The notes: generated by a model not told the origin, from the sequence alone. A stretch of DNA of 64,000 bases from an uncultured Alphaproteobacteria bacterium (GCA_947646585.1 CANSHD010000002.1:203614-267613); one strand, 5' to 3'. Shown: positions 13,470-52,430, counted from the stretch's first letter. Made by a program: numbers and translations.

Positions 13470-13913
13470 TTATATAACCTCAAGCGTCCAGTCGTGCGTC
13501 CACAGTATTGCGGCGGATATTGTAAATCCGGGATATATCGCGCCCAGCAAATCACGGTATTCCTGCAGCTGGATTTTGTATTTGTCACGGCGCGCGCGGC
13601 GGTCCGTGTCGGTTTTGTAATCCAAAATCTTTATTGTCTTTGCGGCGGTGTCAACAATTATGCGGTCGATGCGGCGGCTGATAAAGCGGCCGTTTATTGT
13701 ACCGGCAACGGGCACCTCTGTCCGGGCGTTCGGGCCAAAGTATTCCGCCAAGTGCGCGTTTGTTTGTATGCGCGCAATCAGTTCCGCATCGCCGCGTGCG
13801 GCGGCGCCGTCGATTGCGATTTTGCGCAGGCGTTCGTGCATGTCGGTGCCGGCGCTGGTTGCAAAACGCATGTCGCGGCCGCGGCGGATAAAATCATACG
13901 GACTGGTCGGCAT
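13470..13913 (-). CDS. AddA-type PD-(D/E)xK nuclease domain, in a different frame from the helicase body
   Basis: MPTSPYDFIRRG...GTDMHERLRKI...EVPVAGTINGRFISRRIDRIIVD...ILDYKTD...YKIQLQEY carries the AddA/RecB nuclease motifs. The ATG at 13913 overlaps the end of the 869-aa ORF by 20 nt in another frame. Confidence 0.6.
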   Translation of the reverse strand: MPTSPYDFIRRGRDMRFATSAGTDMHERLRKIAIDGAAARGDAELIARIQTNAHLAEYFGPNARTEVPVAGTINGRFISRRIDRIIVDTAAKTIKILDYKTDTDRRARRDKYKIQLQEYRDLLGAIYPGFTISAAILWTHDWTLEVI

Positions 13914-16503
13914 TTGTAATCCTTGTCGGTTCGTTTGCGTCGTTGCCGAAAACACTCCACAGGCGCGCGTGCCACGAGTCTGCATTCGGCGCCTTGTTCG
14001 ATGTGTATCCGAATATATACAGACGGTCGCGCGCACGCGTCATCGCCACATATAACAGACGGTAATATTCAGCTATCTTGTCGCGCATTGCGGCGTCGGC
14101 GGCCATGTCGCGCCGGGCGGACGGCATTGCACGCGGTACCCAAATCCATGGGCGCGGCATATCGGCGTCGGCCGCTGGTATCGGAATAAACTTTTCACCG
14201 TCCGGCATGTTCGTCGTATCGATTAAAAATACAACGGACGCCTCCAGCCCCTTGCTGCCGTGAACGGTGACGATGCGCACGCCGCTGTTTTCGTCCATGT
14301 CGCGTTTTATCTCGCTGCCGCCGGTGATAAACCATTTTAAAAAGTGACGCATTGTGCCCGGCTGTGTTCTTTCGTATGCCAGACATATCGTCAAAAATTC
14401 CTCCAGCGGGTCGATTATTTGATTGCCCAGTGCGGCAATCATTTCGCGGCGCGTGTCGTTGGAATTTAGAATTTGTGAAAAGAACGTATATGGACCACAT
14501 TTTGCCGCCCATTCCATTGCCGCACTTAATCGCAAAAAAATATCCGGGCGCATTGTCTGCAGAATATTGAATACCGTGACCGTTTTTGTGTCGTCCGCCA
14601 GGCGTTTTATCGCATCGGTGCGCGCAGTGCATAAATTTAAAATATCGCGTTCTGTCAATCTGAAAATCGGACTTTTTAATACGCAGCATAAACTGTAATC
14701 GTCGGCCGGATTAAGGCAAAAACGCGTTAGGTTCAACAGGTCGCGAACCGCGGGAAAATCCGGCAAAACGATACGGTCACTGCCAGCGACGTCAATGCCG
14801 CGACGTTTAAGTTCTGTGACCAGCGGCGGCGCCAGTGGCTTTCTTTTTTGTACCAGTATCATTATGTCGGACGCGCGACATTCGCCGGTGGAAATCATCT
14901 GTTGTATCCGGTCGGCAATCATTGATATGTATTCCGGCACGCCGGCATCTGTTTCCTTTTTTGATACAACCGGATGCAGTTCAACCGCGCCGACGGCGTC
15001 GCGGCGGAAGCATTTGTGTGCATTGTTGGAAAAGCCTGTTAACTCAACAATTTCGCGATTGCCAAAGAAAGTATCAACGAATCCGAGAATTGGCGCCGTA
15101 GAGCGAAAACTTTGCGTCAAAGGAATCTCTGATATCGTCCGCATGTTGTTGCTTATTTGGTCGGCAATTTCCTGGCGGCTGGCGGCAAAGGCATTCGGGT
15201 CCGCACCTTGGAACCCATATATCGACTGTTTGCTGTCGCCGACAACGAACAGCGAATGCGGGTCGTCCGACGTATCGCCATCCGTAAAAAAGTCGCCGGC
15301 CATCATGCGTAAAATATCCCATTGCTGGGGGCTGGTATCCTGGGCCTCGTCAACCAGTATGTGATTCAGGCCCAAATCCAGCTGCGACAATACCCACCCC
15401 ATTGTGTCGGGCTTTGAAAACAGGCGACGGGTATATAAAATTAAATCGTCAAAATCCAACAGGTTGCGAGCATGTTTTAATTCCATGTATGAACGTGCAA
15501 ATGCGGACGCTAAATCAAACATTGCGATTGAATCCCGGGCTATTTGGCTGTTTACCTCGTACTGTGCCATGGCGTAGACACGCTCCAGCTCCGTTTTGGC
15601 ATAATCCAGCTTTGCCAGGTCTTTCTTTGGTTCCAAATCCTGTTTTAGATATGTGTATTTGTATTCTTCAAAATTTATTGACGTATCAATGTACTGTTTT
15701 GTTTTATTGATAAGCTCTGTCAAATACTTTACCGGTGTTTTTCGCGAATTTTGGTCCGCTGTGGCATTTTCGATGATTTTTTGTAATAACATCGGGTCTG
15801 CCGCCGCCGGTTCGTTAAAATCGGAAAATAAAAATTTGTTAATCGTATCAATAAAGTATTCGCGATATTTATTAACGTTTTCAACTTGGAAAAACGTCTT
15901 GTACTGCCCTGTTAATTCTTTTAACAGGTCGGGCATATAATATTCCGAAACCCGTCCGACGATATGCGCAAACGCATCGGATGTTCGCGGGTCGTTTCCG
16001 GCAAATAAAATCATCCGGTCAAAGGCGTCCTGTAACAATACCTTTTGATTGGCGTCGGATACCAAAGTCCATGCCGGCGACAGGCCGGCCTCCATCGGAA
16101 AGCGATGCAGAATTTCTTCACAGAAACCGTGAATGGTTTTTATCTTTAATATATCGGGATTGTCGATGTACTTAAAGAATATTGCGCGCGCGCGTTTTAA
16201 ATCCGCGTCGGTCGGCGTCTGTGAAAAAGCAACGCCCGCCAGCATGTCGCGCAAATCATCGTCGCCCGCCATGGCCCATTTGCGCAGCATTGCCAAAATT
16301 CTGTTGCGCATTTCCCCGGCCGCCGCGTTTGTATACGTTAAGCACAATATCCCGGCCTCCGATTTCGCACGGAACAGTATGCGCAATAAACGCTGGACCA
16401 GAACACTGGTTTTGCCCGTTCCTGCATTCGCCTGAACCCATACGTTTTCAGACGGCGACGCGGCCTTGTCCTGTTCCGGTGAAAGTATCGTTTTTTTTGC
16501 CAT
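13894..16503 (-). CDS. addA: UvrD/AddA-like ATP-dependent helicase (helicase body of AddA)
   Basis: 869 aa. Motifs ANAGTGKTSVLVQR, ILVDEAQDTSPQQW, VGDSKQSIYGFQGA and LLYVAMTRARDRLYIFG. Confidence 0.85.
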   Translation of the reverse strand: MAKKTILSPEQDKAASPSENVWVQANAGTGKTSVLVQRLLRILFRAKSEAGILCLTYTNAAAGEMRNRILAMLRKWAMAGDDDLRDMLAGVAFSQTPTDADLKRARAIFFKYIDNPDILKIKTIHGFCEEILHRFPMEAGLSPAWTLVSDANQKVLLQDAFDRMILFAGNDPRTSDAFAHIVGRVSEYYMPDLLKELTGQYKTFFQVENVNKYREYFIDTINKFLFSDFNEPAAADPMLLQKIIENATADQNSRKTPVKYLTELINKTKQYIDTSINFEEYKYTYLKQDLEPKKDLAKLDYAKTELERVYAMAQYEVNSQIARDSIAMFDLASAFARSYMELKHARNLLDFDDLILYTRRLFSKPDTMGWVLSQLDLGLNHILVDEAQDTSPQQWDILRMMAGDFFTDGDTSDDPHSLFVVGDSKQSIYGFQGADPNAFAASRQEIADQISNNMRTISEIPLTQSFRSTAPILGFVDTFFGNREIVELTGFSNNAHKCFRRDAVGAVELHPVVSKKETDAGVPEYISMIADRIQQMISTGECRASDIMILVQKRKPLAPPLVTELKRRGIDVAGSDRIVLPDFPAVRDLLNLTRFCLNPADDYSLCCVLKSPIFRLTERDILNLCTARTDAIKRLADDTKTVTVFNILQTMRPDIFLRLSAAMEWAAKCGPYTFFSQILNSNDTRREMIAALGNQIIDPLEEFLTICLAYERTQPGTMRHFLKWFITGGSEIKRDMDENSGVRIVTVHGSKGLEASVVFLIDTTNMPDGEKFIPIPAADADMPRPWIWVPRAMPSARRDMAADAAMRDKIAEYYRLLYVAMTRARDRLYIFGYTSNKAPNADSWHARLWSVFGNDANEPTRITNADQSV

Positions 16504-16586
16504 TTATACCCTTGCGTTGCATTAAAGATTCTAGTATAAATTTCATAGAACTTCAAGAATGATATATTTTGCGCGGAGGGCGAAAA

Positions 16587-18533
16587 ATGGAAGCCGGTTT
16601 ATCAGTTGTTTTTGCGAATAAGATAGTATGGATTGCATGCGGCGGCATGGCGGTTATGATGCTGGCGGCAATCGGGGCGCTGTTTTTTGTGTCGCGCAAA
16701 TCGCAGAAAGTAATGGAATCTTTGCTGGGCATTATGTTACAGCCGGAGCGCGTAAAAATCCACGACGCGTCGCGTGTTCTGCGCACACTGATGGCGGACG
16801 AAATCGCAAAGATAGAGGCCGGATTCAAAACCATGTCCGACACCCTGCGCGCCCAGATTGCGGCCGCGGACAAATTGAACGAAGAACTGGGGCTGCAGAA
16901 TGAAAAACTGGTCGCGACCGCGGATGCGGCCACCAAGAAACTGGTAACGATGTCCCAGCGTCTGGACAATACCGTAACCGGACTGCACGACGTTGTAAAT
17001 TCGGATACGTGGCACGACGTTGAAACGGCGACCGCGCGCTTTAACGAGACGATATCGGAATTGCTGGCGCGCATAGACGCAACATCGCAGGAGGCCGCCG
17101 CCCGCATCGCCCACATTCAGGAACAGATTGACGCCTGGCAGGAATCGGGCCGCCAGTTGTCGGAGCGCTTAACAGCGGAATTTGAATCGAACGGCACGCA
17201 AATGAAAGACATGTCCGAACAGTCGGCCGCCCTGCGCGATCAGCTGGGGGCGCTGTCGCAGTCCGTGGCGGACGGCTTTGGCGCGGTAAAGTCCGCGGCG
17301 GCGGATTACGAGTCGGTTATGACCGGCAACGACAAGCTGCTGGGCGAGCATATATCCAAAATGGAAAACTTTAGCAAACAGTCAAAGAAACAGTTAACCG
17401 CGCAGATGAACACCCTTACCAACACAGCCAATGTTGTCGGCGGCCAGGTGCGTCTGGCGGAATCGTCCATTGACAAGCAGGTGCGCAAGTTAACGGACGC
17501 GGTTGAAACACTGATGTCGTCGGCCACCACAACGGAAAATTCCGTCCGCGGCATATCGACGGAGCTGGCGACGCTGACAAACCGCTTTAACGGCGAGATA
17601 AAGGAATTTGCGACGGGCGTCGTGTCCGAGTTAAAGACGGTGTCGGGCGTTGCGAATGTGACGCTGGAAAACACCAAGACGGCGGCGGGCGCATTCTCTG
17701 AATCCGTGCGCGCAATGGCGACCGGCGTGCGCGAAACGCTGATTGAAATGAACACGGCACACACTCAGCTGTCGGGCCAGTCGGCCGGCCTGATAAAAAT
17801 GTCGGCTGAAACAACCGCCCAGCTGCAGCCGCTGTCGGCGTTGATAGAAAAATATTATGCGGCCCTGCCCGATTTGTCGCGCGGCTCGGCCAAGACGACG
17901 GAGACGCTTGAAAAGATTGTCGGCAGTCTGAATGAAAAAATCAATTTAATGCGCGACACTGTTTCGGAATCGATGAATGCGATATCGGATTCGTCCGTAA
18001 AGCTGGAAGACTTGGCGGGACAATCGCGCCAACAGATGATAGATTTAATGGCGGATTACGCCAAGGCCGTGAACACCATGCAGACACTGAACAAACAGAT
18101 GATGGTTGCGCGCGCGTCCGCCCCGATGGATGCCATAAAGACGGCGCCGGCGGATTCATTTGCCCGCGTCAGCAGCCAGGATTTCCTGAAACAGAGCGAA
18201 AAGCTGTTTGAAAAAATGCATGAACAGTCGCTGGATTTAACGCGTGCGGCGGGTGCGGAAATACCGGACGTCGTGTGGAAGAAATATCATGCCGGCGACA
18301 AGACAATATTTTCAAAGTGGCTGGCCAAAATGATGGCGGCGGCGGATAAAAAGCGTGTTCGTGAAATGCTGAAATCCGATGCCGTGTTCCGTTCCCAGGC
18401 AACACAGTTCGTACGCAGCTTTGACAAAGTTCTGGCCGCGTCGCGCCAGGCGGACAATGCAGACAAACTGGCGGCGACACTGATAAAAACGGATTTAGGA
18501 CAGATTTATGCCGCATTAAAGGGGCATGTATAA
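16587..18533 (+). CDS. membrane-anchored long coiled-coil protein
   Basis: Start set at ATG 16587, with a GGAGGG RBS 6 nt upstream. One N-terminal TM helix, then about 600 aa of heptad-like sequence. Confidence 0.7.
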   Translation: MEAGLSVVFANKIVWIACGGMAVMMLAAIGALFFVSRKSQKVMESLLGIMLQPERVKIHDASRVLRTLMADEIAKIEAGFKTMSDTLRAQIAAADKLNEELGLQNEKLVATADAATKKLVTMSQRLDNTVTGLHDVVNSDTWHDVETATARFNETISELLARIDATSQEAAARIAHIQEQIDAWQESGRQLSERLTAEFESNGTQMKDMSEQSAALRDQLGALSQSVADGFGAVKSAAADYESVMTGNDKLLGEHISKMENFSKQSKKQLTAQMNTLTNTANVVGGQVRLAESSIDKQVRKLTDAVETLMSSATTTENSVRGISTELATLTNRFNGEIKEFATGVVSELKTVSGVANVTLENTKTAAGAFSESVRAMATGVRETLIEMNTAHTQLSGQSAGLIKMSAETTAQLQPLSALIEKYYAALPDLSRGSAKTTETLEKIVGSLNEKINLMRDTVSESMNAISDSSVKLEDLAGQSRQQMIDLMADYAKAVNTMQTLNKQMMVARASAPMDAIKTAPADSFARVSSQDFLKQSEKLFEKMHEQSLDLTRAAGAEIPDVVWKKYHAGDKTIFSKWLAKMMAAADKKRVREMLKSDAVFRSQATQFVRSFDKVLAASRQADNADKLAATLIKTDLGQIYAALKGHV

Positions 18534-18541
18534 AAACTTTC

Positions 18542-18570
18542 TTGTATTCCGCCGGCGATTGGCATATAAT
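18542..18570 (+). promoter_or_regulatory. candidate sigma70 promoter of leader A
   Basis: TTGTAT, 17-nt spacer, TATAAT. It sits immediately before the block conserved with leader B. Confidence 0.5.
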
Positions 18571-18574
18571 GCAT

Positions 18575-18816
18575 ATGCCTGCGGGTGTTCCGCAGGTGGG
18601 GCGTCAGAACCTCTGCCTTAGCGTCGGGATAAGATTCAACAGGCGCGCATTTCCGCGCCGATTTTATTATCACGGCGACAAATATACTCCTGAACAAACG
18701 GTTCAGGAGGGTTCGCGGAATATCCAATACGCGACGCAATTCTAAGGATTGTTCTGAACCTCCTGAACCACCAATGTTTGGTGGTTTTTTCATAAAACAT
18801 CAGGAGAAAAAGAACT
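18575..18816 (+). ncRNA. structured 5' leader A (candidate riboswitch or attenuator)
   Basis: About 240 nt, alignable along its length to the minus-strand leader at 22347..22585. Contains hairpin CCTGCGG-GTGTT-CCGCAGG, two hairpin-plus-T-run terminators and alternative pairings. Confidence 0.55.
18766..18790 (+). terminator. intrinsic terminator inside leader A
   Basis: AACCACCAA-TGT-TTGGTGGTTTTTT, 27 nt before the ATG at 18817. Confidence 0.65.
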
Positions 18817-19089
18817 ATGAAAAAAACTTTAGTGATTATATGTGGTGGCGTACTGTTTGCCGGTCCGGCAATGACAATGACGTGCAGCATTAGTTCGGTG
18901 CCGGCATCTTGCATAGCAAATACCGAAACTTGCAGTGGGGGATATTGTACAACCACCTATAAATATACCGCGGCCAGTCAAAAGTGCACATGCTCAGGCA
19001 ACGGATGCTGCACATGTGCATATTTATCAAATCCGTTGTGCACCCAATGCCCGACCTCGTTCAAAGGCGTGGAATGTCCATTATGCTAA
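18817..19089 (+). CDS. small secreted Cys-dense peptide (90 aa)
   Basis: AGGAG RBS and signal peptide MKKTLVIICGGVLFAGPAMT. The mature part of about 70 aa has about 15 Cys. Confidence 0.65.
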   Translation: MKKTLVIICGGVLFAGPAMTMTCSISSVPASCIANTETCSGGYCTTTYKYTAASQKCTCSGNGCCTCAYLSNPLCTQCPTSFKGVECPLC

Positions 19090-19107
19090 TCGGTTTGGGG
19101 GTATAAA

Positions 19108-19509
19108 ATGCGAAAGAATATTTTATTGGCGTGTGCGGTTGTGTCCGCAACAACAATCTCCAATGCTTTGGCGGACTGCAATCCATCGGGCACCAGCTGC
19201 AGCGCATGTACAACATACAGGTGCAATTCAGGTTATTACGGAACAGCAACATCTGGCAGTTCCGGCTGTACGGTCTGTCCGTCAAATGCAACATGCGCCG
19301 GCGGCAATGGTTCAACTTTTATATGCAACCAGGGGTATTATAAAAGCGGCTCTGCCTGTGCGCGCTGTCCGGCATCGGGCGGAGTGTACGGCACGACCAA
19401 GTCCACGGGGGCAACGTCCATAACGGCATGTTATATTCCGTCCGGAACCGCATTTACTGACACCGGTGGCAGTGGTTCGTACACAGGCGACTGTTATTAC
19501 ACCAATTAA
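19108..19509 (+). CDS. secreted cysteine-rich protein, family member P2
   Basis: Signal peptide and CxxGYY units. C-terminus is CARCPASGGVYGTTKSTGATSITACYIPSGTAFTDTGGSGSYTGDCYYTN. Confidence 0.8.
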   Translation: MRKNILLACAVVSATTISNALADCNPSGTSCSACTTYRCNSGYYGTATSGSSGCTVCPSNATCAGGNGSTFICNQGYYKSGSACARCPASGGVYGTTKSTGATSITACYIPSGTAFTDTGGSGSYTGDCYYTN

Positions 19510-19531
19510 GACAATCGCCCTTAACGGGCGA

Positions 19532-21097
19532 TTAAAAATCAAATGACAGGGATAGTGTTGCGCTGTATGACATTCCCATATTGTCATGTAGCGCCCCTAT
19601 TCCGACATAAATAATCGCATCGTCTTCCGGCAAAGAAAGTCCAATTCGTGCATCGGCCTGCAGGCCGCCGTCGTTGTCTGAAATTATTCGGGCGTCATAT
19701 GTATAATTAATGTCTGTGGTTTTATGCGTATGGCGCGCAATGACACCGGCCCTAAGATTTATATCGGTTGAATGTTGTATAACATTTGCATAACGTGCCG
19801 CCAGCCCCACAATCGGCGTTAGCGTCATGTTATCTGCTACCAGAAATTTCGGCCCGGTGTCGGCATAAAAATCAGCGGCAAAGCCCGACGGGTCGGACGC
19901 GGTTGCGGCGCCCGATTGTAATACCGGCGTGGTGAACCGGGCCGCGGTTATGGTAATGCCGGAATCGGCAAAAATATGCGGCGCGTCATACCGGACATAT
20001 GCGTCACCGCCCGCCAGTTTGGCCGAATAATCATCGATACCGTCCGTGAAATTCATATCCGCCGCATGAATTGTAACCGATGCGCGCACCGGTTTGGCTG
20101 TGCCGGTGTTCAAGCCCGCCCTGATTCCGTATGCATCAATATTTTGACCGGTGATAATAAACGGTGCGATTTGCATTGGAGCCGGCACCCCGTCATCCGT
20201 GTGCATTGCGCCGACGTGTCTGTTAAATGTCTGTATGGGGCGGGCCAATGCGCGCGTGTTGATGCGCATAGATTTGTTCATTATGCGCCCCAGCGCGGGC
20301 ATGTCTGTCGCCCGGTCCAGACGTTGCAGCAGATTGTCATCGGGATTTATCGTACGCAGGGCGTTTAAAAATTCGCCCGTCTGATTTCCCATTATTTTAT
20401 AATAATCCGTTTCACGTGCCAATTCAGCGTACAAGGCGCCGCCGCGAATCACCGTGCGCAACGCATACAGCGGATTTATATCGTCGGCATGCAGATGCAT
20501 TGTGCCGCTGCCCGTGACACGCCAGAAAATCGGCGTGTTAAAATCAATGTCTGCCATTTTTATGTGCAGCTCGTTATCGCCGACCAACTCTATCGGCACC
20601 GGCATCGCACGCGACATAAGCATTATTTCGGGCGACAGAACAATTCCGGAATCGACCAGTATGACTTTGTCCGCGGCGGACGATATGCGCCGAATATCCG
20701 TCCACTGTAAATCGGCCGCCCTGTACACGATGATATTGTAGTTGTCGGCGACATTTATGTCCGTAATGTCATCGGGCGTGCGAATAATTTGCGTTAAGCT
20801 GGCGCTTGCGCCCAATGTAATTTCGCCGTCAATCGTGCCGCTGTTTTTAATATAAACATCACGGCCGTCCGCGACAAACACGTCGCCGGACAAAACGCCA
20901 TGGTTCTGCAGGTAAGATGATGCGGTAATGTTGATTTGATTAAAGTCCAGAAAAGCTCCACCGTCAACAACAGTGCTGTCCGCAATATTCAAGATATCGC
21001 CGTACATGTTGCTGTCAAAATATTCTGCCATGGCCGGCATAGGTATCAACATAATGCACAGCATAAAACGATGCTTCACCAATCCCCCCATCTCCAA
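19532..21097 (-). CDS. autotransporter-like outer-membrane protein
   Basis: 521 aa with signal peptide ...MLIPMPAMA and a repetitive passenger region. C-terminal beta-barrel-like alternating pattern ends ...SATLSLSFDF (terminal Phe). The exact start is ambiguous. Confidence 0.7.
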   Translation of the reverse strand: MEMGGLVKHRFMLCIMLIPMPAMAEYFDSNMYGDILNIADSTVVDGGAFLDFNQINITASSYLQNHGVLSGDVFVADGRDVYIKNSGTIDGEITLGASASLTQIIRTPDDITDINVADNYNIIVYRAADLQWTDIRRISSAADKVILVDSGIVLSPEIMLMSRAMPVPIELVGDNELHIKMADIDFNTPIFWRVTGSGTMHLHADDINPLYALRTVIRGGALYAELARETDYYKIMGNQTGEFLNALRTINPDDNLLQRLDRATDMPALGRIMNKSMRINTRALARPIQTFNRHVGAMHTDDGVPAPMQIAPFIITGQNIDAYGIRAGLNTGTAKPVRASVTIHAADMNFTDGIDDYSAKLAGGDAYVRYDAPHIFADSGITITAARFTTPVLQSGAATASDPSGFAADFYADTGPKFLVADNMTLTPIVGLAARYANVIQHSTDINLRAGVIARHTHKTTDINYTYDARIISDNDGGLQADARIGLSLPEDDAIIYVGIGALHDNMGMSYSATLSLSFDF

Positions 21098-21135
21098 TGG
21101 AGGTCAGATTAGCACATAAGAATATTTTCTTAAAG

Positions 21136-21741
21136 TTAAAATTGACGTTCGCGACATATGCGCCGCAAAAAAGCCTGAAGACGCGATGATATTATGGTCT
21201 CGTCCGCGCTGCATTTTACAAGAAAATCCATGTCCAGGCCCGCGCGCAGAAAATCCAGCGGCGTGCACGTATTTGTGACACGCACACGATTGTCGTCTGG
21301 CATGTTGGCGCGGATGCGGGCGATATCAAAATTATTTTCCGGCGGGATAAAATACAGTGTCTTGAACGAATAATCACGCCCGTAACCGTTTCTCAGGAAC
21401 CAGTCGCGCAATTGTGCGGCATATTTCGGCTGAATGACGTCATAGACCAGATTCGTGTCCATGTGGTTTAGTATTTCGGATTCCGGAACACCGTATAACC
21501 ATTTGGGCTTGCCGGGCGTCCAAAAGGCCTCGTTCACCCACAGGCGGGTTGCCAGTGCTGCGGTGTCAAAATATTGTTCGTCGCGGAAATAATATTCACG
21601 ACCATCGACCTCGCCCGGGCGCATGGGGCGTGTTGTCGCCGAAACCAGCTTATGAAAATGACCCGCCGGCAGGTGATGCTCTATAAAATAGGATTTTCCA
21701 CTGCCCGACAGGCCACAGCAACACAGAACTGTCTTTTTCAT
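21136..21741 (-). CDS. guanylate-kinase-like P-loop kinase
   Basis: GLSGSGKS P-loop and SATTRPMRPGEVDGREYYF (Gmk signature TTRxxRxGExxGxxYxF). The C-terminal half is divergent. Confidence 0.65.
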   Translation of the reverse strand: MKKTVLCCCGLSGSGKSYFIEHHLPAGHFHKLVSATTRPMRPGEVDGREYYFRDEQYFDTAALATRLWVNEAFWTPGKPKWLYGVPESEILNHMDTNLVYDVIQPKYAAQLRDWFLRNGYGRDYSFKTLYFIPPENNFDIARIRANMPDDNRVRVTNTCTPLDFLRAGLDMDFLVKCSADETIISSRLQAFLRRICRERQF

Positions 21742-21803
21742 TATCGCCCCCTTATGCTTTCATATGCCTTATTGTAAATAAAAATGCATTCGGGGGCAAC
21801 GGT

Positions 21804-22346
21804 TTAGTTTTTATAATAGCAGTTTCCGGTATATTCAAACGAGCCTGTCGAATCGCTGGACTTGGTGCCCGCCGGGATATAACACTCTGTTATCGCCGTG
21901 GCGCCGGGCCCCGACGTGGTGCCTGCAACGCCACCCGATGACGGACATGCGGTGCAACCACTGCAGCTGGTTTTTAAATTGTTCAGTTTTGCCGTGCCGT
22001 AATACCCCTTTTGACAGCGCGCGGTTATATCGTATGTGCAAACATTGTTGACGCATCCTTTGCTTGCCACCTTGTCGCAACCACCGCCCATGTCGGTAAC
22101 CGTTTCGCTGTTGCATGTGGTGGGGTCACATACTATCGGATCGATTGGATCAACGACGCCTACATTGCATGGCTCGCAACAAGTGGCATCATACCTTATA
22201 CATTCGCCATATACGGGCCCGTTTACGTCCTGAGAAATCCTTCGACATTCGAAACATGTTATTGTTGGGTCGACAAAGACTGCGTATGCATTTCCAATCA
22301 ATGTCACACCTGCACCGATTGCGGATATTATTATTTTGGTTTTCAT
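21804..22346 (-). CDS. secreted cysteine-rich protein, family member P3
   Basis: Start moved to ATG 22346 (AGGAG RBS; MKTKIIISAIGAGVTLIGNAYA). C-terminus is CTACPSSGGVAGTTSGPGATAITECYIPAGTKSSDSTGSFEYTGNCYYKN. Confidence 0.8.
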   Translation of the reverse strand: MKTKIIISAIGAGVTLIGNAYAVFVDPTITCFECRRISQDVNGPVYGECIRYDATCCEPCNVGVVDPIDPIVCDPTTCNSETVTDMGGGCDKVASKGCVNNVCTYDITARCQKGYYGTAKLNNLKTSCSGCTACPSSGGVAGTTSGPGATAITECYIPAGTKSSDSTGSFEYTGNCYYKN

Positions 22347-22585
22347 TTGTTCAATCTCCTGGCTTTTTTCGAAATGAAAAACCACCAAAACATTTGGTGG
22401 TCAGGAGGTTGACTACAATCTTACGAATTGTGTGCTTATTCAATATATTCGCAGCCCTCCTGACCGGGTCAGGAGTTTATTTTTCGCCCAAATAGTAAAA
22501 ACGGCGCCAAACAGCGCGCCATATGTACATATTTCGACGCGTAAGCAGAGGTAGTCACACCCCACAAGCGGAACACCCGCCTGCA
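22347..22585 (-). ncRNA. structured 5' leader B, homolog of leader A
   Basis: The minus strand reads ATGCAGGCGGGTGTTCCGCTTGTGGGG...CTCCTGACCCGGTCAGGAGG...CCTCCTGACCACCAAATGTTTTGGTGGTTTTT, with the same element order as leader A. Confidence 0.55.
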
Positions 22586-22591
22586 TAAAAA

Positions 22592-22620
22592 ATTATATAG
22601 CGCGGCGCATTATATTTCAA
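22592..22620 (-). promoter_or_regulatory. candidate sigma70 promoter of leader B
   Basis: The minus strand reads TTGAAA, 17-nt spacer, TATAAT, then TTTTT and the conserved leader start. Confidence 0.55.
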
Positions 22621-22623
22621 TAT

Positions 22624-22650
22624 AAAAAATCCCGGCGTAATGGCCGGGAT
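22624..22650 (-). terminator. rpoD intrinsic terminator
   Basis: The minus strand reads CCCGGCC-ATTA-CGCCGGGATTTTTT directly after the rpoD stop. Confidence 0.7.
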
Positions 22651-22653
22651 ATG

Positions 22654-24735
22654 TTAATCTTCCAAGAAACTGCGCAATTTTCTGGCGCGCGTCGGGTGCT
22701 TTAACTTGTTAAGCGCCTTTTGCTCTATCTGGCGGATACGTTCACGCGTAACACCGATATATTCGCCAACCTCTTCCAGTGTGCTGGTTTTGTTGGTGCT
22801 CATACCGAAACGCTGGCGCAGAACGGTTTCCTCTTTCGGGTCCAGTTCCGACAAAATCTGTGTAACGATTTTGCGCAGGTTTTTCTGGGCCGCCGATGTG
22901 AACGGATTCTTGGCCGTTTCGTCCGCGATGATTTCAATACGGCTGCTGTCGTCTTCGGTGCCGACGGGCGCCTCCAGCGAAATCGGCTTTAAGTTGACTT
23001 TCATCGCCTTGTGTATCTTGTCCACCGGCAGATAGATAATCTTTGACAATTCTTCGGCGGTCGGATTGCGGCCGTATTTGTGCATAAACTGGCGCGACGC
23101 ACGCTGAATCTTGTGTATGTTGTCAATCATGTGCACCGGGATACGAATTGTACGCGCCTGGTCGGCGATACTGCGTGATATGCCCTGCTGAATCCAGTTG
23201 GTCGCATATGTCGAGAATTTGTTACCCAGACGATAATCAAACTTGTCAACCGCCTTCATCAAACCGATATTACCGTCCTGAACCAAGTCCGAGAAATCAA
23301 GGCCCAGACCACGGTTGCTGGATTTTTTTGCAAATTTGATAACAAGACGCAGGTTGGCTTCTATCATTTCGCGCTTTGCACGGGCGGCCTCGGTCTGGCC
23401 GCGGCGGACCAGTTCCACAACCTTTTTGTATTCCGCGGTCGGCTGGCCGGTCTCGTTGGCGATAGCGGTGATGTCGTCCTGAATCTTTAAGATATCCTTT
23501 TCGTGCTTTTTGGCAAAGTTCGCCCAGACGGCATTCTTTGATTTCGCCAGCTTTTTTACCCAGTTGCGGTTCAATTCATTGCCCGCATATTCGGCCAGGA
23601 AGTCTTCGCGCTTAATCTTGTTTGCCAGCGCCAGACGCAGCAGCTTGCCCTCAAGCCCCATCAACAACTGGTCGCGCTGTGTCAGGCGTTCCAGAATTTC
23701 GGCATTGCGGTCGTCGTTTAAGCGAATCTTGCTGACGTGTTCAAACAATTCCAGACGCATTTTGGCGTATTTCTTTTCCAGCGCCTCGTCCGGCGTATTG
23801 GAGGTCAACAGATTTTCCAGACGTTTCGCCTGCAGTTTCTGCATGCTGTTGAATGTCTTTTTAATCTTGGCGAACAGTTCCGTCACCATCGGCATTAAAG
23901 CCTCTTCCATGACAGGAATCGGAACGCCCGACGTGCCGCGCGGCGTTTCTTCTTTCTTTACGCCGTCTTCGTCATCCGCATCTTCGTCCTCGTCGTCTTC
24001 GTCCGATGCGGTGGATTCCTCCAAGTCGTCCAGTTCGTCGTCATCCAGTTCATCCACATGCTCAACGCCCTTGGATTTCAAGGCCTCTGACAATGCGGCC
24101 AGGGATTTCTGTTCGGCGTCACTGGAATACATAACCTCAAGATTCACGATATAGCGCAGGCGAATGTCCTCGTTTAACAACTGCTGATACCAATCCAGCA
24201 TTGCCTGAATTGTCATCGGGCTTTCGCACAGGCCGTATACCATCAGGCGCGACGCGGCCTCTATACGCTGGGCGATTGCAACCTCGCCCGCCGCGGTTAA
24301 CAACTGAACCGTGCCGATTTGTTTTAAATATGACTGTACGGAATCCTGAACGCCCAAAACCAGACTGCCGGTCTGGCTGCGTTCCAGCTGTTTGGCGAAA
24401 TGTTCATAATCGTCGTCGTTGACGTCAACCTGTTCGGCGTCCGCGTTTAACAGATTACGTGTCTTATCGCGCGGCTCGTCCGAGTCGTCGTCATAATATT
24501 TCCCCATGTCCTGCGGGAAATTATCCGACTCCAGGATTTCCAATCCCAAATCCTGCTGAAAGAAATCCAGGACTTCGTCCTGTTCTTCGGCCGGAATTTC
24601 GTCGGCCTCGGTTGCGGCGTCAAAGTCCATCTGGGACATATAGCCAACCTCGGCGGCGCTGGTCGCAAGTTTTTGTAAATTTTCCGGCAGAGACTCTATC
24701 AACAATCTTGTTGCGTCGTCCAGTTTTTTCGCCAT
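22654..24735 (-). CDS. rpoD: RNA polymerase sigma-70 factor RpoD
   Basis: Start set at ATG 24735 (MAKKLDD). Acidic insertion. Regions 2-4 include [18 protein letters not shown]-like [18 protein letters not shown] and [20 protein letters not shown]. Confidence 0.95.
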
Positions 24736-24769
24736 GAACAAACCCCTGAATTTCTAAGGTTATAAAGAA

Positions 24770-43919: not shown

Positions 43920-45197
43920 TCAGTCCTTTACCGCCCCAAAGGAGAAATTTATATCACGATAATAACCGTCCTGCATTTGCACATTACTTGTTCCAACTGT
44001 GCCAACTGTTTCTGTGGCTGGCAGAAAAGCATCGGGGCCATAATATTGTATATCTTTGGTGTAGATACTTTTGGGATTCTCAACTTTGAATTTTGGGTCT
44101 GTTGTGGGGTTGCCGACATATACCAATTCATTGTCTTTTGTATACACCTTGTACCACCCAGCATCTGTAAAATCCATGACCAAGTTCTCTGTACCGTTAT
44201 CAGCATTAAAAGATAACTTGACCGTGCCGTCTGCTGTGAATCCTGGCATGTCGTCAATTTCTATAAACTCATAACCTGAACTTGAGCCGACTTTATTTGT
44301 TTTCCCTGTTGATATTCCAACAAATGCCTTGCCAGAATAAGTGTGATTCCCCGTAATTACTCCAATGTCCGCCAATGTGTGCATATCAACCGCACGCGCC
44401 GGGTCGCCAGATTTCCAGCCCGCAAAGGTATAAACAGAATAAGGGTGTCCATAGGCTGTTTTGGGGATAATACGCTCCCAGTACCCAAAATCTGAAAATC
44501 GTAGCGGAACATTTGAATTCTTACTCCCTACTGTGAACTCTGCTCGCCCGGCATTGCCGTTATAGGAAAATTCTTTTACAAACTTGCCGTCCGTAGAGTT
44601 TTTTAGGTCAAAAATTATTTCTGGCTCTGAATCATTTTCCAACAAACAACCGTTTATATCCCTACATATAACAGTTATTTCTTTACCTTGGTCTGCATGC
44701 GATGCACAGCCACCAGGCAAATCACATTGAGACCTATACCATTCTTGTTTCCCTGATGCGTAATTAGTAAATTTATAATAATATTCCCCATAATTATATG
44801 ACAAATCACAACCGGATTCTTCTTGACATGTACTGGTATATGTATATTGGTATGGTCGCAATCGTTGGATTCGTAGTTCCTCATTTTCTTTATCAAAAAC
44901 ACCGGCAATACGATATGGCTCATTTGTACTCGTAGAAAAAGTCCCCATTGATACAGTTAGTTTTTTACTGTCCGGAACATTCGGGTATTTTATATTATCA
45001 CTTGGCTGTTGAGTGTTATCGCCGGGCTTTTCTGTGGTATTATCGCCACCGGGCTGTTCTCCAGGTTTTGTTGTGGTGCCGCCACTGATTCCGGCACTGC
45101 TTCCTATATTATATTTTGCACCACCGCCCCCATGGCCGCCGCCATTGTTGCATGCGCACAACGATACCAACATCGCCATAAAAACATATTTACGCAT
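43920..45197 (-). CDS. surface lipoprotein candidate with TbpB/fHbp-like C-terminal barrel
   Basis: Lipobox MAMLVSLCAC followed by a Gly-rich linker. The C-terminus ...GTVKLSFNADNG...YYGPDAFLPATETVGTVG...INFSFGAVKD resembles TbpB-type lobes. It lies immediately upstream of the Slam-like gene. Confidence 0.6.
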   Translation of the reverse strand: MRKYVFMAMLVSLCACNNGGGHGGGGAKYNIGSSAGISGGTTTKPGEQPGGDNTTEKPGDNTQQPSDNIKYPNVPDSKKLTVSMGTFSTSTNEPYRIAGVFDKENEELRIQRLRPYQYTYTSTCQEESGCDLSYNYGEYYYKFTNYASGKQEWYRSQCDLPGGCASHADQGKEITVICRDINGCLLENDSEPEIIFDLKNSTDGKFVKEFSYNGNAGRAEFTVGSKNSNVPLRFSDFGYWERIIPKTAYGHPYSVYTFAGWKSGDPARAVDMHTLADIGVITGNHTYSGKAFVGISTGKTNKVGSSSGYEFIEIDDMPGFTADGTVKLSFNADNGTENLVMDFTDAGWYKVYTKDNELVYVGNPTTDPKFKVENPKSIYTKDIQYYGPDAFLPATETVGTVGTSNVQMQDGYYRDINFSFGAVKD

Positions 45198-45417
45198 CTC
45201 TCTCCCCCTTTTTGTTGTTTTGTTTACTATTTATGCTTTGAAAAACTAGCCAGCCAAACACAATGCCACCAAACAACAATATGATTTGGAAACATTCCTG
45301 TGCGTCACTCCATTGACTGATTGAAAAACACAACGCCGCAAGGGTAATCATGTACGCCATGTTTTCTTTACTTATTTTGGGCGCCACTGTACTTCTGGGT
45401 GACTGATTATCTGACAT
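45190..45417 (-). CDS. small membrane protein (75 aa)
   Basis: ATG 45417 is preceded by AAGGAG. Two hydrophobic segments. It overlaps the lipoprotein start by 8 nt. Confidence 0.45.
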   Translation of the reverse strand: MSDNQSPRSTVAPKISKENMAYMITLAALCFSISQWSDAQECFQIILLFGGIVFGWLVFQSINSKQNNKKGERDA

Positions 45418-45758
45418 TTGTATCTCCTTATTGCAAAACAAAAACCGCCAAAGGAATGGCGGTCGGGCGTTTTCAAAATCATACGATAAATGACCCTGTT
45501 GCTTTCGGTCAGGCCTATTATATAACAACAGACACCCGACCTTGCGGCCAGGCATAATCGGATTACGACGCAACACACGCCGTATCGTATGGGTTTTGAA
45601 AGACCCCGAACCCAATTCCCATTGGATTCATTTGCATTATATCAGGAATTTTGCCCGTTGTAAATACCGACGGACCAAACAAAAGGTACTCATACGGATT
45701 TTGTGGGGGGATACGGTGTACGTTGTGTATATTTTATGATTTTTTTAGTAATTCATGT

Positions 45759-49116: not shown

Positions 49117-49797
49117 ATGAAAAAATGCCTAATTTCAACACTGGTAATATTTGGCGGATTATACGCATCGCCTTGTAATGCCGCATTATCTTTACAGATG
49201 TGTCCTGGAACTTCAATCTCCGTTGGAACAAAATGCTCTGCAATCCCAGACATGTTAAACTATTTTATCATAATGCCCGACTGTATGGATCGGCCAACTG
49301 GTCAAATGAAAAATACTTGTAAAACTTATTTATGTGATGGTCATTGCGAATGCAGAACGACACCATGTACAACTTTAATCGATCCAGACCCTATTCTCTT
49401 ATGTGATGCAAGTTGCTTTACCAATATAACATGGGAAACCTCTGCTTTTTCCGGGGTTCAAACAGGCACCCCAACAATTTCTGTAAGCAGCAATTGTACT
49501 AACTGCCCCGACAAATTGTACAGATGTCGCAGCGGATATTATACAACCGACGTATTTGCCACACTGGGGGTGCCGGACGGAACGACAAGCAGCTCAAAAC
49601 TTACTTGCACAGAGTGTCCGGCGGCCGCCGATGAAAAGACAGACGACGACGGTCCGATCATTATCGGCGCCCCGTCATATGTTGCATCCGCTGCGGGTTT
49701 GCCTTCTTTGACCGATTGCTATATCAAATCCGGCGCATCTATTACAAATGATGTCGGAACATATGAATATACCGCGGATTGCAAGTACACGAACTGA
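49117..49797 (+). CDS. secreted cysteine-rich protein, family member P5
   Basis: Start set at ATG 49117 (MKKCLISTLVIFGGLYASPCNA). C-terminus is CTECPAAADEK...LPSLTDCYIKSGASITNDVGTYEYTADCKYTN. Confidence 0.75.
   Translation: MKKCLISTLVIFGGLYASPCNAALSLQMCPGTSISVGTKCSAIPDMLNYFIIMPDCMDRPTGQMKNTCKTYLCDGHCECRTTPCTTLIDPDPILLCDASCFTNITWETSAFSGVQTGTPTISVSSNCTNCPDKLYRCRSGYYTTDVFATLGVPDGTTSSSKLTCTECPAAADEKTDDDGPIIIGAPSYVASAAGLPSLTDCYIKSGASITNDVGTYEYTADCKYTN

Positions 49798-50545: not shown

Positions 50546-52430
<1,885 letters not shown>

Follow-up and report, generated by a model that had tools for sequence, protein, structure and literature searches.

What are two homologous 5′ leaders doing when they face each other across a guanylate-kinase-like gene and a gene for an outer-membrane protein, and do they form one system with the genes enclosed? 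The question arises in a 64-kb stretch of DNA (the window) from an uncultured Alphaproteobacteria bacterium, with coordinates counted from its first letter. An initial annotation placed leader A before the genes of a 90-amino-acid (aa) Cys-dense protein and of a second protein, P2, and the convergent leader B before protein P3, a Gmk-like protein and the outer-membrane protein; the positions of the leaders and the gene layout were both correct (Table 1). We conclude that the leader works like a riboswitch acting on a terminator and a ribosome-binding site (RBS), that it belongs to no described family, and that the novelty lies in the leader and the hypervariable proteins behind it, not in a secretion module. 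The probability is put at roughly 0.7 that the locus is composite and that its new leader family acts as a default-OFF attenuator or riboswitch-like switch of a regulon of disulfide-rich envelope proteins.

The leaders are homologous regulatory elements, and the proteins behind them are exported and Cys-rich, as had been proposed. Leaders A and B share 81% column identity when aligned (76% over 219 nt by BLASTN, E 6e-31), and a 21-nt core motif, for which 0.04 occurrences are expected in the window, is present there exactly twice. Leader A folds with -96.7 kcal/mol (z -5.5 relative to shuffled sequences) and leader B with -88.1 kcal/mol (z -4.8); the covariance model of the family, R1, scores them at 223.9 bits (E 1e-75) and 269.5 bits (E 2e-91) respectively. 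The promoter-like site of leader B, TTGAAA-17-TATAAT, matches at 11 of 12 positions. Neither leader was matched in a scan of the whole window against Rfam 15 at gathering scores, and a scan of 18400-22800 against the same release at E<=10 returned terminator-like noise only and no family for the leaders.

To see how far the leader extends beyond the window, GTDB species genomes were searched with a trimmed alignment of the C-terminal Cys domain of the proteins, which gave 47 loci (designated here by L numbers), all of them from metagenome-assembled genomes (MAGs) of uncultured gut Alphaproteobacteria sampled from mouse, deer, yak and other sources, including one Candidatus (Ca.) Enterousia sp. 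According to nhmmer the leader stands immediately 5′ of the gene in about 45 of the 47, with further copies in the flanks, and the addition of a profile for a divergent class II brought the total to about 75 non-redundant leader instances. In the ~90 kb sampled from the CAMWON MAG, a relative of the window's organism, there are 15 leaders or more. The bias of choosing loci by their proteins was removed by a leader-first scan of metagenomes with a leader-only DNA pattern; it yielded 120 loci, 92 of which have nhmmer leader matches, and these 92 gave 98 covariance-model matches of up to 269 bits. The downstream open reading frames (ORFs) of the leader-first set comprise 61 that are Cys-rich (at least 8 Cys), 14 others (mostly signal-peptide proteins) and 9 that are truncated. 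In the literature on Rs-D84 or RF32 neither this RNA nor these Cys-rich proteins are described, and no riboswitch or cysteine-rich report was found. The leader represents a new family of cis-regulatory RNA, not described before, in reduced-genome gut Alphaproteobacteria, and its host range is probably Ca. Enterousia and its relatives in the order Rs-D84. Several public gene calls start inside a leader, among them P0018 (285 aa, L010 6001-6858) and P0014 (179 aa, L003 7001-7540); because these calls begin within the leader, the predicted N-termini are translated leader RNA, and the true starts lie at about L010 6221 and L003 7055.

The architecture of the leader is as follows (helices P2 and P3 of the RNA are to be distinguished from proteins P2 and P3). 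At the 5′ end a near-invariant -10 box (TATAAT) is followed by the P1 hairpin with a GNNUU loop, AUGRGG, strand a, CCYC and strand b; the middle consists of helix P3 (its inner GGCGCGC hairpin is missing in some subclasses), an A-rich linker, P4 (ACUCCUGA...UCAGGAGGG) and P5 with the conserved loop GAAUAUAnnGAAUAA; the 3′ end runs through CACAAUU, strand b′, GAUUGU, strand a′, AACCUCCUGA, a terminator hairpin with its U tract and the RBS (CAGGAGA) to the ATG. Pairing of a with a′ and of b with b′ forms a long-range helix that closes a four-way junction of P3, P4 and P5. The 3′ element, (A)ACCUCCUGA, precedes the intrinsic terminator and then the RBS, and it has two complementary partners, the RBS and the P4 3′ strand (UCAGGAGG). 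The -10 box and a GGUUUU tract are nearly invariant among leaders, and about 60 conserved nucleotides are concentrated at the multi-helix junction.

In 43 distinct leaders the nine-helix fold is paired in 92.2% of cells, with compensatory changes in 41 of 58 pairs and a covariation score of 0.467 compared with 0.186 in shuffles; when the partner strand was slid by 1 to 3 columns as a control, pairing fell to 48% or less. Helix a:a′ is paired in all of these leaders (100%) with up to four pair types per position. The same fold recurs in 88 distinct metagenome leaders that lie outside model R1 (95.8% of cells paired, compensatory changes in 48 of 58 pairs). Three further ideas about this structure were dropped. 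A per-paralog "address code" in the hypervariable a and b helices is contradicted by identical a sequences that recur within one genome (CAGAAC in L011-A and L054, GACUAC in L011-B and L025); pairing of the P1 loop (GNNUU) with the conserved CACAAUU as a pseudoknot shows no covariation when judged by eye; and a kissing contact between the P5 loop and UUAUU of P3 fails because several subclasses have no P3.

These data bear on two other explanations of the conservation. If the conserved sequence acted as DNA, either as the end of a mobile element or as a recombination anchor for swapping coding cassettes in antigenic variation, the dispersal of the cassettes would be accounted for, as would an abrupt loss of identity behind leader A that is described below; against this stand the dozens of compensatory base changes that keep RNA helices on one strand, the fixed orientation and distance to the RBS and ATG, the -10 box that each copy owns, and the flanking repeats that were looked for and not seen, so that we regard it as improbable. 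A recombination-anchor role could nevertheless be additional to the RNA role rather than an alternative to it. Leader-peptide (ribosome-mediated) attenuation is far less probable still: an AUG or GUG does follow P1 in 35 of the 43 leaders and an SD-like (Shine-Dalgarno-like) UCAGGAGG lies inside the leader, but 5 leaders have ACG or UCG in its place, the U of the codon forms the final base pair of P1, the ORF that it would open ranges from 3 to 80 codons, and no internal ORF preceded by an SD sequence is conserved. It was rejected because neither a start codon nor an ORF is conserved.

Class II leaders (found in L007, L013, L017, L018, L021-L023, L025, L033, L035, L040, L044 and L049) follow the same plan with a long-range helix, and RNAalifold finds compensatory changes in 22 of 43 pairs. 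Their 5′ G-run is predicted to pair with a 3′ CCCC element, one pair of which covaries (GC13/AU2), and this pairing gives a hint of an equivalent GRGG:CCUC contact in class I. The window holds a third leader of this divergent class (Table 1), which precedes genes for a 75-aa membrane protein and a 425-aa probable lipoprotein; the leader superfamily therefore also controls envelope proteins that are not Cys-rich. Leaders in L013 (5851-6128, minus strand), L022 (4057-4224, minus strand) and L101 (1795-2029, minus strand) precede proteins of about 180-220 aa with 0-1 Cys, whose last residues, ...KFKLF or ...LSTEF, are those characteristic of small beta-barrels of the outer membrane.

Beyond its default fold, the leader contains competing helices that reuse the nucleotides of a:a′, b:b′ and P4. 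These are helix P2 (GRGG with CCYC) and P6 (CAAUU with GAUUG), two local hairpins that exclude the long-range helix, and an antiterminator, a 10-bp helix of the P4 3′ strand with the 3′ CCUCCUGA(CC) that overlaps the first bases of the terminator stem. P2, P6 and the helix of the P4 3′ strand with CCUCC are 86-95% pairable and partly covary (AU17/GC14/GU12 in P2, AU31/UA12 in P6 and CG31/UA10 in the antiterminator). Both strands of P4 (5′, then 3′) change jointly with the 3′ element and the RBS, from CUCCUGA/UCAGGAGG/CCUCCUGA/CAGGAG to CUCCAAC/GUUGGAGG/CCUCCAAC/AGGAGG, and class II has its own counterpart set (CCCGA/GUCGGGGAG/CUCCCCGAC/AGGGGA). The AAC that the 3′ element has in the CUCCAAC subclass fits the P4 strand and not the RBS, and therefore the P4-3′/CCUCC helix itself appears to be selected. 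All 44 leaders folded have P4, the terminator and a masked RBS in their minimum free energy (MFE) structure, and forcing the antiterminator costs +7.2 +/- 3.9 kcal/mol.

On this basis the following switch is proposed. By default P4 and the terminator would be formed and the RBS masked, giving the OFF state. An input sensed by the domain of P1 and the junction would redistribute the SD-like and anti-SD-like strands, in such a way that the P4 3′ strand, or the 5′ GRGG run, captures the CCUCC element; with CCUCC captured, the base of the terminator stem would be lost and the RBS unmasked, turning on the exported protein. As in recognised riboswitches, there is a structured domain in the 5′ untranslated region (UTR) supported by covariation and, in silico only, an expression platform with mutually exclusive pairings on the terminator and RBS; the gene context of the leaders points to no candidate ligand.

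The simplest alternative to a switch is a constitutive structured 5′ UTR that serves mRNA stability, translation efficiency or export coupling, in which the alternative pairings would be by-products of SD/anti-SD-like repeats. The uniformity of the MFE fold and the small number of events behind the covariation of the alternative helices would fit such a UTR, which we nonetheless find unlikely, since a strong intrinsic terminator with a masked RBS would simply silence the gene and pairing with the RBS does not account for the AAC/GUU match that the 3′ element of the CUCCAAC subclass makes with the P4 3′ strand.

Several points weigh against the proposed default-OFF switch as a whole. The covariation of the alternative helices consists mostly of one or two subclass switches, therefore of few independent events, and is weak in the metagenome set, which was selected by pattern. 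When the antiterminator is forced, the P4 5′ strand becomes free to pair with the RBS, and release of the RBS is therefore not guaranteed; the antiterminator takes away only 3 of the ~9 base pairs of the terminator, and which state is ON and which is OFF was decided by thermodynamic folding alone. Metabolite riboswitches do not usually reach 15 or more copies in one MAG, nor do they usually govern a regulon of structural proteins. In the window one member of the protein family lacks a leader, and the proteins behind a few leaders are not rich in Cys. Finally, we infer the membership of the window's organism in Rs-D84 from a leader-sharing Ca. Enterousia MAG (L019) together with a published account of that order (PMC12306168).

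Two kinds of input are considered for the switch. Rather than a metabolite riboswitch, the leader may be an attenuator that depends on a protein or a small RNA (sRNA), a factor that would recognise the P5 loop (GAAUAUAnnGAAUAA) or the P1 loop and co-ordinate the regulon. The many copies per small genome and the homogeneous regulon of envelope proteins agree with this, as does the P5 loop, where two conserved half-sites (GAAUA/AAUAA) flank a middle that can be replaced by an inserted hairpin (L020, L031, L013), as is usual in a recognition surface; no protein or sRNA emerged as a candidate, though, and the conserved nucleotides at the multi-helix junction are equally typical of ligand aptamers. 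We consider such a factor possible but doubtful. A diffusible ligand, somewhat short of even odds, is slightly more likely than a dedicated RNA-binding protein.

The proteins behind the leaders almost all carry a Sec-type signal peptide, contain 9-24 Cys and are 75-270 aa long. Most of the family end in a conserved ~50-aa domain (C..CPSSGG.xGTT...GAT.IT.CYIPxG...D.TG...YT..CYY), which P2 bears as CPASGG...CYIPSG...D.GG..YTGDCYY. A profile search of 1.84 billion representative proteins matched 1148 clusters at E<=1e-3, of which 376 reach E<=1e-10, and among the matches listed the domain stands at the C-terminus or a few residues from it. The claim that P2 and P3 are paralogs is borne out for the C-terminal ~70 aa (51% identity, E 3e-18) and does not extend beyond that stretch; the 90-aa protein has no detectable homology to either. 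The start of P3 is placed at ATG 22346 because the 194-aa ORF that begins with TTG would cross the leader terminator. In the AlphaFold2 (AF2) model of P3, residues 70-180 are confident (predicted local distance difference test, pLDDT, about 90), and a Foldseek search of the PDB with it gave no significant match (best E 0.43). A sequence search of the PDB with the family returned laminin EGF at E 0.05, which is uninformative. P3 has no Pfam match and P2 matches VSP only, at 15.6 bits against a cut-off of 31.4; among 19 family members, PF07699 was found in 4 (best E 4e-10), a TNFR-like model in 4 and VSP in 2. A fourth Cys-rich protein with the C-terminal domain is encoded elsewhere in the window (Table 1); no R1 match lies 5′ of its gene, where the sequence is AT-rich.

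The genes of the family diverge rapidly. Between the window and the CAMWON MAG protein identity falls from 98% in the coiled-coil protein beside addA and 94% in the Gmk-like protein to 86% in the autotransporter, 67% in P3 and 47% in the small Cys-rich protein. In L005 and L011 the counterpart of the 90-aa protein is 47-48% identical, though the leader of L005 is 98% identical. Compared with L011, the window (18831-19188) shows 95% nucleotide identity through the coiled-coil gene and leader A, none across the first gene and then 86%; similarity breaks off no more than ~15 nt from where leader A ends and is regained within P2. This cliff suggests that, just behind a leader that stays conserved, the cassette has been replaced or has diversified to an extreme. 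The regulon is inferred to be large and to evolve fast, and to consist of disulfide-rich proteins that are secreted or belong to the envelope; they probably serve contact with a partner or host cell.

The second half of the question, whether the kinase and the outer-membrane protein belong to the same system, was answered by gene order. The initial annotation held that the two leaders co-regulate one surface or secretion module in which the outer-membrane protein is a dedicated component for the Cys-rich proteins and the kinase an accessory. The order it described is kept in close relatives, where P3, the Gmk-like gene, the autotransporter gene and, in reverse, P2 and the small Cys-rich gene follow one another in L001, L005/L006 and L011, and the 62-nt spacer between P3 and the Gmk-like gene, also present in L001, contains no terminator, so that read-through from leader B could add to transcription of the kinase and autotransporter genes. 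The order is broken in distant relatives, and the module did not survive the comparison because its components do not co-occur across genomes. L058, L059 and L060 read cysS-trcR-rpoD-terminator-Gmk-like, with no leader or P3 separating rpoD from the kinase gene; a homologue of the autotransporter of ~520 aa (30% identity) comes next in L058 and L060 and not in L059, and the coiled-coil gene and addA follow in L059 and L060. Conversely, about 75 other leader-preceded genes lie at unrelated loci, none of them with a Gmk or an autotransporter, and the closest relative of P3 outside the genomes of conserved synteny (P0014 in L003, 51% identical) stands alone with its leader between rpiB and leuS. 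Homologues of the Gmk-like protein form 463 clusters, and the best 120 of the 463 are all at least 55% identical, a conservation far above that of the autotransporter (5 homologue clusters in a word-based search) or of P3; the kinase gene also has its own promoter-like site (Table 1). Type Va autotransporters export their own passenger domain and not other proteins. The single-module explanation is thus left with little probability.

Because of the distant synteny, the scattered leaders, and the conservation and separate promoter-like site of the Gmk-like gene, the locus is read as a conserved backbone flanked by two inserted copies of a dispersed cassette. Each cassette has its own sigma-70 promoter, a ~245-nt structured leader and one or two small Cys-rich genes with signal peptides. 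The backbone, judged from gene order to be the older part, comprises rpoD, the Gmk-like kinase, the type Va autotransporter and, in reverse, the coiled-coil gene, together with addA; the kinase and autotransporter are probably housekeeping genes, and we conclude that they are bystanders of the leader system. A guanine-nucleotide link that would make the Gmk-like protein the functional partner of the leader was likewise set aside, since synteny shows their adjacency to be secondary. Rs-D84 genomes lack nucleotide biosynthesis (PMC12306168), and a salvage kinase would therefore be expected in them. For annotation, the neighbourhood of autotransporter, kinase and Cys-rich proteins is not to be propagated as a system.

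Both backbone proteins could be assigned to families. The outer-membrane protein had been called autotransporter-like, and modelling agrees: its AF2 model, built with six homologues (mean pLDDT 69.9, barrel mostly 75-90), predicts a beta-rich passenger (residues 30-205), helices (232-297) and a barrel of 12 strands (308-519), and its best PDB matches are all autotransporters (EstA, Hbp, NalP, EspP, BrkA and AIDA-I by Foldseek, E 1e-8 to 1e-6). By eye it has an N-terminal signal peptide (...MLCIMLIPMPAMA/EY...) and an aromatic C-terminal end (...LSLSFDF). It reaches 21.4 bits with Pfam PF03797, below the cut-off of 26; a sequence search of the PDB gave chance catalase matches only, which are uninformative; and NCBI labels the homologue P0030 "autotransporter domain-containing protein". 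On the strength of the model, the protein is a type Va autotransporter. The ORF finder starts it at TTG 21097, but GTG 21082, which lies after GGAGATGGGGGG and gives 516 aa like the homologues, is the more likely start. The Gmk-like protein aligns to Gmk over residues 1-137 of 201 (hhalign probability 97.4%) and retains the P-loop GLSGSGKS and the GMP-binding ATTRPMRPGEVDGREYYF (TTRxxRxGExxGxxYxF type). It scores 27.7 bits with PF00625 (cut-off 25.2) over residues 8-55 only and 40.9 bits with TIGR03263, short of the cut-off of 160, and a full-length match that includes the LID region was not obtained; its profile matches in the PDB are guanylate kinases and three GK-domain proteins. No second gmk was found in the window or in the locus fragments fetched.

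Table 1. Coordinates of the leaders, genes and other features of the window.
Feature	Position	Strand	Remark
Leader A	18561-18816	+	
Leader A, -10 box TATAAT	18565-18570	+	
Leader A, P1	18577-18597	+	
Leader A, a with a′	18604-18610 with 18751-18757	+	long-range helix
Leader A, b with b′	18616-18621 with 18742-18747	+	long-range helix
Leader A, helix P3	18622-18677	+	junction hairpin
Leader A, P4	18687-18709	+	junction hairpin
Leader A, P5	18713-18734	+	junction hairpin
Leader A, anti-RBS	18759-18766	+	CCUCCUGA
Leader A, terminator	18767-18790	+	
Leader A, RBS	18800-18807	+	
Leader B	22347-22600	-	
Leader B, -10 box TATAAT	22597-22592	-	
Leader B, P1	22584-22564	-	
Leader B, a with a′	22557-22551 with 22416-22410	-	long-range helix
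Leader B, b with b′	22545-22540 with 22425-22420	-	long-range helix
Leader B, helix P3	22539-22485	-	junction hairpin
Leader B, P4	22475-22457	-	junction hairpin
Leader B, P5	22453-22433	-	junction hairpin
Leader B, anti-RBS	22408-22401	-	
Leader B, terminator	22401-22377	-	
Leader B, RBS	22362-22355	-	
90-aa exported protein	18817-19089	+	14 Cys; first behind leader A; without the C-terminal domain of the family
Protein P2	19108-19509	+	133-aa exported Cys-rich protein; second gene of the leader A operon, 18 nt past the first
Hairpin terminator	19512-19534		bidirectional; common to the converging P2 and autotransporter genes
Type Va autotransporter (predicted)	19532-21097	-	516-521 aa; conserved backbone, not cassette
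Gmk-like nucleoside monophosphate kinase	21136-21741	-	201 aa; divergent guanylate-kinase fold; conserved backbone
Promoter-like site TTGCCC-17-TACAAT	21771-21799 (21799-21771)	-	in the 62-nt spacer between P3 and the Gmk-like gene
Protein P3	21804-22346	-	180-aa exported Cys-rich protein; 17 Cys; family C-terminal domain; behind leader B
rpoD terminator	22629-22650	-	between rpoD and the leader B promoter
rpoD	22654-24741	-	flank of the locus
addA	13894-16503	-	flank of the locus
Coiled-coil protein	16569-18533	+	654 aa
Third leader	45393-45645	-	divergent class II variant; R1 45 bits, E 4e-14; nhmmer class II profile 2e-24
75-aa membrane protein	45190-45417	-	behind third leader
425-aa probable lipoprotein	43920-45197	-	behind third leader
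Fourth Cys-rich family member	49117-49797	+	226 aa; C-terminal domain; ends ...CYIKSGASITNDVGTYEYTADCKYTN
tmRNA, two-piece	52072-52429	+	Rfam alpha_tmRNA, 167 bits

The coiled-coil protein, conserved beside addA, has weak SMC-like and Baculo_PEP_C matches and is 91-98% identical in the closest relatives. The class of the window, Alphaproteobacteria, is confirmed because it contains a two-piece tmRNA (Table 1).

Rs-D84 genomes are smaller than 1 Mb, with roughly 800-1,000 genes, and the organisms, predicted to be obligate symbionts or parasites, include with Ca. Enterousia common uncultured gut bacteria with a predicted dependence on other cells (PMC12306168). That a small-genome MAG holds 15 or more copies of one elaborate RNA switch, which would control a fast-evolving family of small exported proteins with many Cys and eukaryote-like repeats, points directly at the interaction machinery and at a single governing regulatory input. 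The leader is an orphan class whose covariation support is unusually strong; with more than 170 representatives and its SD/anti-SD strands in triplicate, it is a well-defined target for ligand or protein hunting. A bolder proposal, offered tentatively and with the odds against it, is that the leader is a new riboswitch class sensing a global signal (a second messenger or a metabolite of the partner or host), which would co-ordinate hypervariable disulfide-rich surface proteins in obligate symbionts and serve in addition as a homology anchor for cassette exchange. If true, it would be a bacterial analogue of a variant-surface-protein system with control at the RNA level.

Each component may be compared with known systems. 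The Gmk-like protein resembles guanylate kinase (Gmk, PF00625 / TIGR03263) in its P-loop, its GMP-binding motif and the profile match over its first 137 residues, and differs in a C-terminal third (LID region and last helices) that does not align. The outer-membrane protein shares with EstA, Hbp, NalP, EspP, BrkA and AIDA-I a signal peptide, a beta-rich passenger, a helical linker and a 12-strand barrel ending in Phe; unlike classical type Va autotransporters it has a short passenger (~200 aa), very low sequence similarity and a PF03797 score below cut-off. The Cys-rich family has CxxC-rich, GYY-containing repeats in common with Ephrin_rec_like / GCC2_GCC3 (PF07699), TNFR-like and Giardia VSP (PF03302) proteins and, as with the Giardia VSPs, its variable, exported, Cys-rich proteins are encoded by a large set of genes. 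Unlike all of these it is bacterial and small (80-320 aa), lacks a transmembrane anchor and has its own conserved C-terminal domain of ~50 aa.

For the leader, T-box leaders offer one comparison, being likewise present in many copies per genome, long and structured, with a terminator/antiterminator decision; the leader differs from them in having no specifier loop, T-box bulge or cmscan match, and its downstream genes are not aminoacyl-tRNA or amino-acid genes. With riboswitch and attenuator leaders in general it shares a cis-acting 5′ position, a multi-helix sensor domain, mutually exclusive alternative pairing, a terminator and SD sequestration. The closest in lifestyle is the cyclic di-GMP-I (GEMM-I) riboswitch, which occurs in many copies per genome before genes for surface and secreted proteins, as the leader does. 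Unlike riboswitch leaders, GEMM-I included, the leader has no Rfam match and governs a regulon of essentially one protein superfamily, and it is set apart from GEMM-I by its 5′ hairpin, long-range helix, four-way junction and triplicated SD/anti-SD strands.

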